The position numbers and the translations under genes are program-made. Below the pieces are notes generated by a model, which worked only from the letters and a program-made list of their open reading frames with translations, was not told the origin of the DNA and searched no databases. Positions 15,098-19,088 of a stretch of DNA of 64,000 nt are shown here, one piece after another. Source of the DNA: Candidatus Heimdallarchaeota archaeon (GTDB taxonomy: Archaea; Asgardarchaeota; Heimdallarchaeia; Heimdallarchaeales; Heimdallarchaeaceae); the NCBI GenBank assembly GCA_018238545.1, contig JABCTC010000006.1, positions 40,609 through 104,608 on the forward strand, given 5' to 3'. The stretch's first letter is position 1, and the number at the start of each line of letters is the position of its first letter.

Positions 15098-15190
15098 TGG
15101 CGGACCAGACAGGATTTGAACCTGCGAACCCCGGCTTTCTTCAATAGATTTCCGGAGGCCGGTGCCTTATCCAGACTAGACTACTGGTCC
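15098..15190 (-). tRNA. tRNA-Arg(CCG) with a 15-nt intron at 37/38 (intron 15137-15151), CCA encoded
   Basis: Reverse complement GGACCAG...CCGGC-CT-CCG-G[AAATCTATTGAAGAA]A-GCCGG...GGTTCAAATCC...CTGGTCC-GCCA. Confidence 0.93.
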
Positions 15191-15246: not shown

Positions 15247-16362
15247 CTAAATGTCGTAAGAGAAATCCTCCTCCTCTTGGAGTAGAAACTCTTCAGAAAT
15301 TGACAATTTAGCAACATCTTTGAATTTTTCTTTGGTTTTGAGCATAGTTAACACCATAGTCTTCAAAGCTTCTACAAGTTCTTCTAATCCCTTACCTTCC
15401 ATAGTAGAAACGTGATATTCCGTTTTGAACTCAGCTTTAGCTTCTTTAATTTGCTCGTCAGTGAGCAGGTCTACTTTGTTAAGTACTCTAATAGTAGGAT
15501 TATCACTGAACTCATTGGAAATATCCTCAAGCAAATTATTCTGTTCTTTAGCAGATAATTCGGCCTTTTTTGAGTAATCAAACATGTATACAATAACATC
15601 TGAAATATGCTTGATTGAAGCAATACTTTGAAGTTCAATTAAACTGCGTTCATCAAAAGGACGATCAAGTAAACCAGGTGTATCAACAATCTGAACGAGA
15701 GTTAAGCCAAAATTTGCATGACCAAACACTATCTGTTTTGTAGTAAAAGGATATTCACCCACTTCAGGTGATCCTGAGGAAATACACCTAACAAGAGAAG
15801 ATTTACCAACATTAGGGGCACCAGCAATGACTATCGTAGGGAGGATAGTATTAAAATCGGGTACAGATTTCAATTTTTTAACAATTCGGATAAGATACTT
15901 CACATCTCCACGAGCCTTTTTAACAAGAGACACATATCTACCTCCTGTTTCCTTTCTTATTGAAGCCATAACAATAGGGTGATTTGTATCATTTAGTTTC
16001 TGTAATTGTTCCCTCTCAATTTCACGTAACTGATTAGACATGCCTTTTAATCTGCCAAGTACCTTCTTGATTTTGTCAACACTCCCCACTAAATTACAAA
16101 GTTCTTGATAAAATGGATGAATATCTTCAACCCAAGGAAACAGATTAATTATGCTATCAATCTTTCTGGTTAATTCATCTGTTAAGGTATTAATTCTATC
16201 TTTTTCAAGAAAAGAAAGTTTTTGTTCTCTGCTAATTCTTTTCTTAATACGTGTTCGTCTAATAGCTTGGCTTTGTTGAAAAGCATTGTCTATGATTTCA
16301 TCTATGGGAGAGATATAAGTAACCCTTCTAAACGGGTTGCTTGTTTTAGGGTCATTTTTCAA
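15247..16362 (-). CDS. NOG1-family GTP-binding protein
   Basis: IHPFYQEL, GAPNVGKSSL, YPFTTK, DTPGLLDRP, NKVD. Confidence 0.93.
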   Translation of the reverse strand: MKNDPKTSNPFRRVTYISPIDEIIDNAFQQSQAIRRTRIKKRISREQKLSFLEKDRINTLTDELTRKIDSIINLFPWVEDIHPFYQELCNLVGSVDKIKKVLGRLKGMSNQLREIEREQLQKLNDTNHPIVMASIRKETGGRYVSLVKKARGDVKYLIRIVKKLKSVPDFNTILPTIVIAGAPNVGKSSLVRCISSGSPEVGEYPFTTKQIVFGHANFGLTLVQIVDTPGLLDRPFDERSLIELQSIASIKHISDVIVYMFDYSKKAELSAKEQNNLLEDISNEFSDNPTIRVLNKVDLLTDEQIKEAKAEFKTEYHVSTMEGKGLEELVEALKTMVLTMLKTKEKFKDVAKLSISEEFLLQEEEDFSYDI

Positions 16363-16364
16363 TA

Positions 16365-17486
16365 TTAATCACTTTCTGAATCTAGCACTGTCATGTCAAT
16401 TTCGTGTTCAAAGTACTTGGGAAGACACTTTATTACTTCTTTTCGTTGAGTTTTATGTTTTTCTTGATACTTCAGTACCATCTCAAGTAAACGGGGCTTA
16501 CAATCAAGACCACAAATAAGTTTACCACCTAAACAGCCTTGACGAGTTTCCTCTAAATCATCATCATCTTGAATGAAAAATTTTTCAAACCAATCAAAAA
16601 TTGTACAAATGGTAGGATTTGCTCCAAGTTCTCTTTGTTCTTTAACTGTAGTTCTTCCACCAGTGAAAGCGCCCATTATCTTTTTCTTTACAGTCTTAGG
16701 ATCATCTCTTAGGAAAACACATGTTTCAGGAGATGATGAAGACATAGGTCCCCCTGTAAGACCCTTCATATACCTGATGTATAAAGAGGCGGGCAAAGTA
16801 ATTTTACGCTTTCGAGCAATGTCTCGAGTTAAGCGCATGTATACATCCTGATCAAGACCAATTGGAACAACAACTGGAAAATCATCATCTACAGAGGGCT
16901 GGAGAATATGAGCTGCTTGAATGCAGGCATAATAAACAATACCCGCATTTTCCTCACCAGTTAGACCTAAGGCAGCTTTAATGGCATTATATGTTTGGTT
17001 AATAGAAAACGTCAAAGCAAGATAATGGATTCTTGGTGTAACACTGGAAATGTAGGCATGAACATTATTAGGATTAAAACCTACTGCAAAAATGTCAATA
17101 GCATTCTCCAAAGCAGGTTTATATGTATTTTCCAAGTTTTCAACTTTGCGAAAAACATACTTCTCGTCATCAGATAGGGGCATATAAAATTTACAATCAT
17201 ATTTCTTTTGCAAGTAACGTATTAATTCAAAAAGAATCAAATGACCAAAATGTAAATCGTTTGATGGACCACGACCGCTGATAATGGCAAATCCTTTGTT
17301 TTGTTCAATTCTGCTAAGGATTTTATCAAAGTCTCTATGTGCAAAGACTACTCCTCTCCTAAATAACAAGTGATCCTCTCCTATTCGAGGTAAAACATTA
17401 TCTATTTTAGCAATACCAAACTCTTTGAGAATAGTTTCGTAATCCGTCCTTTTCTCTATCTCTCTATTTTCTACAATCTTGCTCAT
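16365..17486 (-). CDS. trpS: Tryptophanyl-tRNA synthetase (archaeal/eukaryotic type)
   Basis: RRGVVFAHRD, SGRGPSNDLHFGH (HIGH), PIGLDQD, PMSSS, AFTGGR; ATG 17486 follows an AGGTG Shine-Dalgarno. Confidence 0.95.
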   Translation of the reverse strand: MSKIVENREIEKRTDYETILKEFGIAKIDNVLPRIGEDHLLFRRGVVFAHRDFDKILSRIEQNKGFAIISGRGPSNDLHFGHLILFELIRYLQKKYDCKFYMPLSDDEKYVFRKVENLENTYKPALENAIDIFAVGFNPNNVHAYISSVTPRIHYLALTFSINQTYNAIKAALGLTGEENAGIVYYACIQAAHILQPSVDDDFPVVVPIGLDQDVYMRLTRDIARKRKITLPASLYIRYMKGLTGGPMSSSSPETCVFLRDDPKTVKKKIMGAFTGGRTTVKEQRELGANPTICTIFDWFEKFFIQDDDDLEETRQGCLGGKLICGLDCKPRLLEMVLKYQEKHKTQRKEVIKCLPKYFEHEIDMTVLDSESD

Positions 17487-17532
17487 TCTAAACACCTTTT
17501 ACAAAATGAGAATAAAATACTTTTCAAAGAAT

Positions 17533-17613
17533 AGCGATTTGGTCTGTCCCCTATAGAAATTTTGCAGTTGATAAAACAGGGGAAAGTCAATGCCAGTCCA
17601 AGTTACCACGCTC
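17533..17613 (-). ncRNA. Candidate structured 5' leader of trpS
   Basis: Nested stems AGCG/CGCU, UUGG/CCAA, CUG/CAG and UCCCCUGU/AUAGGGGA; GC-rich within an AT-rich spacer. Confidence 0.4.
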
Positions 17614-17634
17614 AATATCTTTTTACAAAAAAGT

Positions 17635-17643
17635 CTTTATAAG
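17635..17643. promoter_or_regulatory. Candidate bidirectional TATA box between trpS and the ADP-kinase gene
   Basis: CTTTATAAG lies ~21-28 nt before the kinase ATG (+) and ~22-29 nt before the 5' end of a hairpin on the - strand. Confidence 0.45.
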
Positions 17644-17663
17644 ATTGTCGAACAAATAAAATA

Positions 17664-19088
17664 ATGATGGAAACTTGGAAAAAGATCTATCTAGAAGCAT
17701 CAAAATCGATTGACGATGATAGTATTCGTTCCAAAGGTGTCATATTAGGATTTAATGTCAACATAGACAAAGTTATCAAAATAACTCCTGAAATCCTCTC
17801 AAATATTCCACAGACAACTAGAGTAAAAAATAGATTATCAGGCAATAGTAGTCCAAAAGTAATTACGAATATTGAAGAATTGCTTATTTGTCTACTTCAA
17901 TCAATTAACGAAGGTAAAGCAGATGAGGTTCTCATAAGTTCAGATGAGGTTGCTATCTGGATAGAGGAGCACTTTGTGATCTCAAGAACATTGTTGGGGG
18001 GTCAAGCAGGAATAATGGCAAACCTGTTGAGAAAAATTGAAGTAAATCCGGTATTGTTAAGCATGCCAATTTCAAGTCCCAATTTAACTAAATTGCTTGA
18101 TTCATCAATTATTGACCCAATTACAAGCTATGATAAATTTCAATTAGAATCAAAAAATGCTTCAGAGAAGATCGAACCAATAACACACTATGTTTTTGAG
18201 TTCTCTAAAGGTCAGTATTCGGTCGGTGACAGGATAATTAATTGCGAAAGATCAAACCGCTTTATTGGTTCATATGATAAAATAAATTCCCTACTTATGT
18301 TTTCAGAGGAATTTAGTGAATATAGTATTAATAACATATCAAATTATACCTTATGTGTTATAGCAGGATTTCATCTCATTAATTTGGGAAATAGTTCTTC
18401 TAAATCTTATGCAGAGTTTTTCGAACCTGTACTAAGTTTAATAAGAAAATGGAAAGAAAGAAAACCTTCTCTAATTGTTCATCTAGAACTTGCTGCAGTA
18501 AAAGATGGTGTTTTGAAACAAGCGATAATTGATAATCTATTTACAGTTGTTGATTCTATTGGATTAAATGAACAAGAACTTGTATCTTTTCTACATTGTA
18601 TTGATAAATCTCTTTCAATATCTTTGCATTCAACCATGTCTTCGATTAATATATTCAAAGGAATGCACGCTATTTTTTCCAAGTACCCTCACATCCGGCT
18701 ACATCTTCACTATCTTGATTATTTTTTGCTTTTATCCCCTTTAATCTCAGAAGAATCTGCTCTTATGCGAAAAAATTCATTGGTTATTTCTTCACTTTTT
18801 GCTGCAACTAAAGCAAAAAACGGAAGTATAGATAGATTATCAGACACAAAACTGATTGATTATAATATATCGAAAAAAGGTTTAGAAGAGTTGCAGAATC
18901 TAGAAAATTATCTAGTAAACGAACGGGATGGTGATAATAGTTTCATAAATAATGGTTACATACAAACAAAATCATTTACTATGGTTGGAACCCCAACCAT
19001 AGTTGTACCATCTCCAAAGTACTTGGTAGGCCTTGGAGATACTATTTCTCTGGTGTCACTTTTGTATGAATTCAATAAACTTGACTAA
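17664..19088 (+). CDS. ADP-dependent glucokinase/phosphofructokinase
   Basis: GFNVNID, GGQAGIMANL, RSNRFI, HLELA, SIGLNEQEL, VGLGDTIS. Confidence 0.93.
   Translation: MMETWKKIYLEASKSIDDDSIRSKGVILGFNVNIDKVIKITPEILSNIPQTTRVKNRLSGNSSPKVITNIEELLICLLQSINEGKADEVLISSDEVAIWIEEHFVISRTLLGGQAGIMANLLRKIEVNPVLLSMPISSPNLTKLLDSSIIDPITSYDKFQLESKNASEKIEPITHYVFEFSKGQYSVGDRIINCERSNRFIGSYDKINSLLMFSEEFSEYSINNISNYTLCVIAGFHLINLGNSSSKSYAEFFEPVLSLIRKWKERKPSLIVHLELAAVKDGVLKQAIIDNLFTVVDSIGLNEQELVSFLHCIDKSLSISLHSTMSSINIFKGMHAIFSKYPHIRLHLHYLDYFLLLSPLISEESALMRKNSLVISSLFAATKAKNGSIDRLSDTKLIDYNISKKGLEELQNLENYLVNERDGDNSFINNGYIQTKSFTMVGTPTIVVPSPKYLVGLGDTISLVSLLYEFNKLD

Follow-up and report, generated by a model that had tools for sequence, protein, structure and literature searches.

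What does the short leader of trpS read in this Heimdallarchaeota genome, and by what means? The gene lies in a window of 64,000 nt, the whole stretch of DNA analysed here, from a 3.6-Mb MAG that is 92% complete. A sequence-only reading of the leader proposed a compact tRNA-sensing element resembling a T-box: the UGGU within a bulged UGGUAAC would pair with the ACCA of uncharged tRNA-Trp. We compared the leader across a Heimdallarchaeota genus of 24 species, using 22 congeneric trpS orthologues (proteins 70-93% identical) and an alignment of 27 distinct orthologous leaders; all comparisons are among related MAGs and hence are not independent of one another.

The window gene scores 214 bits against the TIGR00233 trpS model (cut-off 176.75). 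It is separated from a divergent ADP-dependent sugar kinase gene (ADP-PFK/GK; ATG at 17664, plus strand) by a 170-nt spacer with a TATA box inside (Table 1). The earlier reading is correct in sequence and coordinates, with UGGUAAC at 17608-17602 of the minus strand. The distance from the first T of the TATA box to the xTG of a conserved block is 26-28 nt in 22/22 congeneric orthologues, and the spacing is still 27 nt in lineage L097, where the promoter sequence is different. The GAG of this block lies 29-30 nt past the TATA start, as it does in the leader of tyrS, and transcription is predicted to start about 29-30 nt past the TATA box, near 17613.

Several features of the surrounding DNA deserve mention in their own right. 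The TATA box is nearly symmetric, CTTATAAAG reading CTTTATAAG on the opposite strand, and on the plus strand the kinase ATG at 17664 is 28 nt away; 17635-17666 may promote transcription both ways and give a leaderless kinase mRNA. On the other side, a NOG1-type GTPase gene (15247-16362, minus strand) begins 2 nt past the trpS stop. Such a gene is found 3' of trpS in 21 of 22 loci, and trpS-nog1 looks like an operon. An intron-containing tRNA gene at 15101-15190 (minus strand), with the anticodon region CCG (Arg) and CCA encoded, was detected by Rfam and missed by a default ARAGORN run.

Table 1. Features of the trpS locus (window coordinates) and the corresponding leaders of other synthetase genes (contig coordinates)
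Feature	Coordinates	Strand	Sequence or layout	Remarks
trpS (tryptophan--tRNA ligase, 373 aa)	16365..17486	minus		ATG at 17486; PF00579 match
trpS Shine-Dalgarno	17493..17496	minus	GGUG	kept in leader alignment
Frame-1 ORF (alternative reading)	17499..17615	minus	TTG AGC GTG GTA ACT TGG ...	38 codons; 12-38 in relatives
P1 3' strand	17539..17546	minus	CAGACCAA	partner of 17594-17601
P2 hairpin	17547..17583	minus	UCCCCUGU ... AUAGGGGA	part of MFE
U tract past mini-ORF	17573..17576	minus	U4	U5 or longer in most relatives
Putative mini-uORF	17587..17601	minus	UUG GAC UGG CAU UGA (start, Asp, Trp, His, stop)	five codons
Cognate Trp codon, proposed sensing position	17593..17595	minus	UGG	invariant in 27/27
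P1 5' strand	17594..17601	minus	UUGGACUG	mini-ORF start, Asp codon, first two Trp-codon bases
Predicted RNA 5' end and SD-like element	17602..17613	minus	GAGCGUGGUAAC	includes UGGUAAC
Spacer, TATA box to predicted transcript start	17616..17634	minus	T6...A5	TTTTTT-nn-AAAAA in all orthologues
Promoter: BRE-like CGACAAT and TATA box (17643-17635)	17635..17650	minus	CTTATAAAG (TATA box)	gACGATAtTCTTATAAAG conserved genus-wide
tyrS leader	C124, ~16121-16150	plus	GAG xTG ATG CCC TTG GAA TAT Cnn stop	TTG GAA TAT Cnn stop in 21/23
pheS (PheRS alpha) leader	C7, ~866-906	plus	GGGGCGTAWCGTGAC TTG GAA TTT Cnn stop	19/23
ileS leader	C94, upstream of 21345	minus	GAGGAATTAGG ATG GAT CGC GAA ATT CGC stop, then T6	22/23
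thrS leader	C21, upstream of 71831	minus	GAGGACA ATG TTA GGT GAA nnn GAA ACA, two codons, stop, T6-7	17/17 with sequence
leuS leader	C21, ~190 nt upstream of 65965	plus	GAGGAAACCAAA ATG GGG TAT CGY GTT CTT CTY, 1-2 codons, stop	16/22

The block xTGAGnGTGrTnAmTTGGACTGG stands upstream of trpS in 22/22 congeneric orthologues. This 22-nt block is 90% identical between lineages in which four-fold degenerate trpS sites are 39% identical, and it occurs once in the source genome. In about 185,000 species genomes, the exact pattern has 25 matches, 23 of them within this genus; each of these 23 has a TATA box 26-28 nt upstream and, where the sequence reaches far enough, trpS about 130 nt downstream. 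Distant leaders were added by a degenerate-pattern scan of metagenomes, the matches of which were mostly due to chance (about 8 genuine among the 120 loci listed); they include L036 and L068, with TrpRS proteins 66-69% identical, and L097, at 68%. The 27 distinct leaders have 125-134 nt between the block and the trpS ATG, despite a diverged 3' half, and the leader remains with trpS in three loci that have no kinase neighbour. Judged by these sequence comparisons, it is a real, strongly conserved, Trp-specific regulatory leader.

Does this leader bind tRNA-Trp as a T-box would? The genomic tRNA-Trp gene has the ACCA end that had been assumed for it, UGGU is present in 20/27 leaders, and GUGGUAAC is similar to GGUGGNACC, the core sequence of T-boxes. 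The other side of the comparison is less favourable. Seven of the 27 distinct leaders have UGAU, so that these lack pairing to the universal CCA of tRNA. The helices drawn earlier can pair, and the three inner ones (UUGG/CCAA, CUG/CAG, and UCCCCUGU/AUAGGGGA) are included in the RNAfold minimum free energy structure (MFE), but their stability is not above that of shuffled sequences: the 111-nt fold has -21.1 kcal/mol versus -19.2 +/- 3.1 for shuffles (z -0.60), and the 141-nt leader gives z -0.34. Moreover, the MFE pairs GUGGU with AUCGC, so the UGGU is not displayed in a bulge, and the closing helix AGCG/CGCU that would make the bulge proved not to be conserved (57% of cells paired over the 27 leaders).

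RNAalifold found no consensus pairs in the 27 distinct leaders, and the covariation that a structured RNA might have left in relatives is missing there. A cmscan of 17300-17900 against Rfam, with E up to 10, returned four matches at chance level and no T-box (RF00230); the whole window, searched at gathering thresholds, has tRNAs only. With only about 12 nt between the predicted 5' end and the Trp codon, and no consensus structure, the leader lacks a tRNA-elbow platform and a Stem I/specifier, the latter as the sequence-only reading had itself recognized. The leaders of tyrS, pheS, ileS, thrS, and leuS, described below, have no UGGN element. A riboswitch of this kind appears extremely unlikely, and the UGGUAAC heptamer reads instead as overlapping a Shine-Dalgarno (SD)-like element. 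What stands of the proposal is a conserved, Trp-specific trpS leader that probably reports the charging of tRNA-Trp; what falls is the means, T-box-like tRNA binding.

Two other resemblances to structured RNAs were considered. C/D-box or k-turn sRNAs and a tRNA D-arm mimic were rejected by eye, their motifs being unfitting or unconserved. The 5' end of tRNA-Trp, GGGAACUUGG (C72:11630-11733, plus strand), and the leader stretch GGUAACUUGG (17607-17598) are alike at 9/10 positions, a probable coincidence given that these leader positions vary in relatives and that CUUGGA is common to the tyrS and pheS leaders.

The conserved block does have the form of a very short reading frame. The segment TTGGACTGG (TTG GAC TGG) is invariant in 27/27 distinct leaders, and 25 of them have a stop as their fifth codon (TAG in 13, TAA in 7, TGA in 5). 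Start and stop of this mini-ORF thus appear to be under selection, the UUG being invariant and the position of the stop fixed while all three stops are used. Upstream, G5, G7, T8, and G9 of the SD-like element are invariant and column 10 is G or A; its GnGUG core ends 5 nt before UUG, although as a Shine-Dalgarno sequence it is weak, and its spacing is different in pheS. Downstream, a run of at least five T starting in columns 36-50 is present in 18/27 leaders and one of at least four in 23/27. We infer that the five-codon ORF is translated from UUG.

Throughout the genus, mini-ORFs of the same layout, with the cognate codon in each case, precede tyrS, pheS, ileS, thrS, and leuS (Table 1; ileS, thrS, and leuS were identified with NCBIfam models, and TyrRS with NF006330, at 426 bits). 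With the leaders aligned on CTTGGA, the triplet one base further on is TGG for trpS and TAT for its paralogue tyrS; the pheS leader has TTT at this position. The tyrS leader is conserved in 23/23 genus genomes. GAG-N8-CTTGGA has 26 copies in the genome, all of them in coding sequence except those of the trpS and tyrS leaders. A broader non-coding pattern, TTGGA[AC]-nnn-nnn-stop, has 22 genome matches, among which only trpS, tyrS, and pheS have the promoter and gene context. U tracts equivalent to that of the trpS leader lie 2-14 nt past the stop in the tyrS, ileS, and thrS leaders.

Individual leaders show further details. The tyrS leader on C124 reads GAG ATG ATG CCC TTG GAA TAT CTA TGA, 100 nt upstream of tyrS (C124:16227-17291); a T5 tract comes next, together with a conserved GUAGGGCA. 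The pheS-alpha leader on C7 reads GGGGCGTATCGTGAC TTG GAA TTT CTA TAA before a gene at C7:983-2470, and has a conserved small hairpin, AGTTAgtagTAACT, and T7 about 25 nt before the SD; in one species (L230), ATT replaces TTT. The uORF peptides of ileS (MDREIR*), thrS (MLGExETxx*), and leuS (MGYRVLLx*) are all preceded by an SD, with a long-range helix around each uORF. The SD of the thrS uORF has its complement in a GUCCUC further down the leader, and in the leuS leader GGTTTCCAGG and T6 lie downstream, complementary to GGAAACC of the uORF's SD region. Five species have an abutting upstream gene and no leuS uORF; GATAACkCTTTTAAT, a second conserved element that resembles a promoter, is found about 100 nt ahead of leuS. 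A sequence similar to the beginning of the trpS leader (xTGAGnGTGAT), ATGAGGGTGATTTTTTTTGC, precedes aspS (C102:79086-80030, minus strand).

The Trp form of the layout also extends beyond the genus. Four of eight trpS loci from other families of the order, encoding TrpRS proteins about 40% identical, have GAGACG ATG CMA TTG GAA TGG (nnn) stop. The leader peptide, M-x-L-E-W-x-stop, comes close to that of the genus's tyrS leader except for the swapped codon, and both have an AUG two codons upstream in frame. Counting all families, 6/6 leader families conserve the codon of their own synthetase, and the codon before it is GAA or GAC in 5/6. A match of this kind in six families would have a chance of about 6e-9, or about 1e-4 if five positions per ORF are allowed, by a rough product of codon-family frequencies that ignores composition.

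Could the triplet be read by something other than a ribosome? One alternative is translation-independent, specifier-like sensing, in which a tRNA anticodon reads the triplet past UUGGA(A/C) directly. It accommodates the cognate codon in all six leader families, and the UUGGA common to trpS, tyrS, and pheS could be an RNA scaffold. It leaves unexplained, however, the in-frame starts and the SDs (GAGGA before the ileS, thrS, and leuS uORFs), as well as a stop at fixed distance that interchanges TAA, TAG, and TGA, and no second conserved tRNA-contact element was found in the leader alignment; we regard it as very unlikely.

Archaeal repressors often bind at the transcription start site (TSS). The block overlaps the predicted TSS and CTTGGA is common to the three aromatic synthetase leaders, as would suit DNA-level control of aromatic amino-acid genes by a transcription factor, through an operator or a promoter-proximal element. 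The motif is single-copy in the genome, which led us to reject a regulon operator, and on any operator reading the cognate triplet in six families and the in-frame stop would be coincidence. An independent micro-protein gene fares no better, a four-residue peptide with a free fourth residue being unlikely as a functional protein, and we hold operator and micro-protein together to be highly improbable.

A second frame passes through the same block. The sensor might be a longer, leaderless peptide read in frame 1, (M/L)-S/R-V-V/I-T/N-W-T-G..., with its Trp codon at 17600-17598. This frame begins at the predicted TSS and is open for at least 12 codons in 22/22 orthologues; its variable sites include third positions (AGC/AGT/AGA, ATA/ATT/ATC, GGC/GGT/GGA), and another in-frame TGG is found at codon 13 in many clades. 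On the other hand, 12 open codons are not significant in AT-rich sequence, and the start codon varies (TTG in 17, ATG in 9, CTG in 1); in some species the homologous pheS frame even begins with AAG or TAG, which excludes this frame for pheS. The near-invariant T of column 27 would be unusual at a third codon position and is expected for the stop of the other frame, and the trpS leaders of other families and the tyrS leader favour the L-E/D-X-x-stop frame. Following the comparisons with pheS, tyrS, and other-family trpS, the frame-1 peptide was demoted from main reading to a secondary one, and we now think it unlikely.

A +1 frameshift sensor would combine the two frames: a ribosome slipping at a hungry UGG would enter frame 1, which is open in all orthologues and in the window extends as far as a TAA 12 nt upstream of the trpS start, and so bypass the stop. 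The P-site codons GAC and GAA, however, offer no +1 re-pairing, and the length of the frame-1 extension is unconserved, ending at codon 12 in five species; such slippage seems highly doubtful.

We return to the five-codon frame. A start, sometimes with a clear SD, a single cognate codon, a drifting stop kept in place, and a U tract argue for a ribosome-read sensor rather than for RNA-tRNA pairing, and it is our preferred, fairly probable interpretation that the 5' leader of trpS mRNA is a ribosome-read sensor of charged tRNA-Trp acting by leader-peptide attenuation. The SD-like GnGUGR at the short 5' end would bring a ribosome to UUG (17601-17599), where it would read GAC and then need Trp-tRNA(Trp) at UGG (17595-17593). 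If charged tRNA-Trp were plentiful, the ribosome would be done within five codons and would leave; the 5' block would then be free to pair with 17546-17539 (P1) around P2, and RNA polymerase would be unaccompanied at the U tract about 10 nt past the stop and at further tracts before trpS. If charged tRNA-Trp were scarce, the ribosome would stall on UGG, cover the 5' strand of P1, and abut the U tract, and by altering termination or folding it would allow more full-length trpS mRNA.

A ribosome on UGG would have about 17-19 nt between it and the downstream U tract; estimated from bacterial expressome geometry, this would be roughly the distance at which ribosome and polymerase make contact. By analogy with the attenuators of pheST and those predicted for Streptomyces trpS and leuS (PMC1262725), we infer that a stall increases transcriptional read-through to the gene. 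The direction of regulation is likewise presumptive, as is the output step, which could be termination or RBS access.

The folding of the leader bears on this scheme at several points. The P1 helix, UUGGACUG/CAGUCCAA, has 86% of cells paired over the 27 leaders, and its core UGG:CCA is paired in 25-26 of them. Its 5' strand consists of the start, Asp, and Trp bases of the mini-ORF, so a ribosome on UGG would hold P1 open. P1 has no covariation because its 5' strand never varies; on the 3' side, a CCA with at least 90% conservation (columns 74-76) stands out from a variable stretch, and the duplex partner begins at column 69-73 in 15/16 lineages. The energy z-score of the duplex ranges from +0.45 to -3.1 among lineages and is -0.54 in the window, where P1 does not outperform shuffled sequences and an A.A mismatch weakens the helix. 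P2, in the register of the sequence-only reading, has 61% of cells paired, and in other clades the invariant UAG(G) of columns 63-65 is the 3' side of a hairpin whose 5' partners differ. No hairpin-plus-U terminator and no exclusive antiterminator pair of canonical type were found in the trpS leader. A simple switch by SD sequestration was rejected: making the ribosome footprint single-stranded does not consistently change the accessibility of the trpS SD/AUG, and with the footprint forced open the mean unpaired fraction of the trpS SD goes from 0.40 to 0.29.

Ribosome-mediated attenuation is a textbook bacterial mechanism, and a single sensing codon is unusual for it; archaeal termination needs only oligo-U or a factor. 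Classical attenuators precede pheST and, by prediction, trpS and leuS in Streptomyces (PMC1262725). Like the attenuators of E. coli pheM-pheST and of Streptomyces trpS and leuS, the archaeal leaders have a short leader ORF with cognate codons, with U tracts and RNA helices that overlap the ORF, and the design recurs with other codons before other genes. They differ in the archaeal host, in the single sensing codon of a five-codon ORF with the stop one codon later, in the Glu or Asp codon that precedes the sensor (5/6 families), and, for trpS, in having no clear terminator/antiterminator pair.

Mycobacterial polycysteine leaderless short ORFs, which are amino-acid-responsive attenuators (bioRxiv 10.1101/834739), are similarly very short and 5'-end-proximal and contain cognate codons, but they have runs of Cys codons and belong to bacterial biosynthesis operons, whereas here a single codon precedes an archaeal synthetase gene. 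In E. coli trpL and tnaC, too, a Trp-dependent ribosome event in a leader ORF controls downstream transcription. The tandem Trp codons and four competing segments of trpL are not seen in the archaeal leader, however, nor is the sensing of free Trp via nascent chain and Rho that distinguishes TnaC. A T-box (RF00230) would resemble the trpS leader in being a synthetase-gene leader with a conserved cognate triplet that would report tRNA charging; the trpS leader is without Stem I, a conserved UGGN bulge, or an Rfam match, and because start and stop frame the triplet, its reader is most likely the ribosome. Taken together, the leader sequences point to a device that works as a bacterial leader-peptide attenuator would, and not as a T-box. 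A literature search found no paper on archaeal ribosome-mediated attenuation or on amino-acid-specific control of synthetases by a leader ORF.

The composition of the synthetase itself is of interest in this context. TrpRS has a single Trp, residue 299 of about 373, in 22/22 genus orthologues; TrpRS proteins of the other families have 6-7 Trp residues, and the genome average for Trp is 1.09%. With one Trp, the protein can be made under Trp shortage, which fits a gene expressed when Trp is scarce. Two congeners (G004 and G006) carry an extra TrpRS copy of the approximately 40%-identical, Trp-rich kind, and no Trp uORF was seen before these second copies. Tryptophan synthase alpha (PF00290) was not found in the 92%-complete MAG, whereas 14/14 control genomes matched; the source organism may be a Trp auxotroph, and without TrpA the MAG offers no Trp-biosynthesis leader for comparison.

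More tentatively, and at somewhat less than even chances, many synthetase genes of the Heimdall-group Asgard archaea may be under one minimal uORF device: a uORF of 5-10 codons with Glu or Asp, a single cognate codon, a stop 1-2 codons on, and oligo-U. In such a device a waiting ribosome directly behind RNA polymerase at the oligo-U would decide between termination and read-through. If this is true, archaeal attenuation would operate via transcription-translation coupling and not via competing hairpins.

Asgard archaea are the closest prokaryotic relatives of eukaryotes. The evidence presented here is comparative yet unusually coherent, comprising six synthetase genes in one genus, each with its own codon, and the Trp form in other families. 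If the preferred interpretation is confirmed, Asgard archaea would gauge tRNA charging with the ribosome, using a very small, portable sensor of about 45 nt, and the leaders would provide a handle on archaeal transcription-translation coupling and oligo-U termination. The Trp-poor TrpRS of this genus would then also be accounted for.
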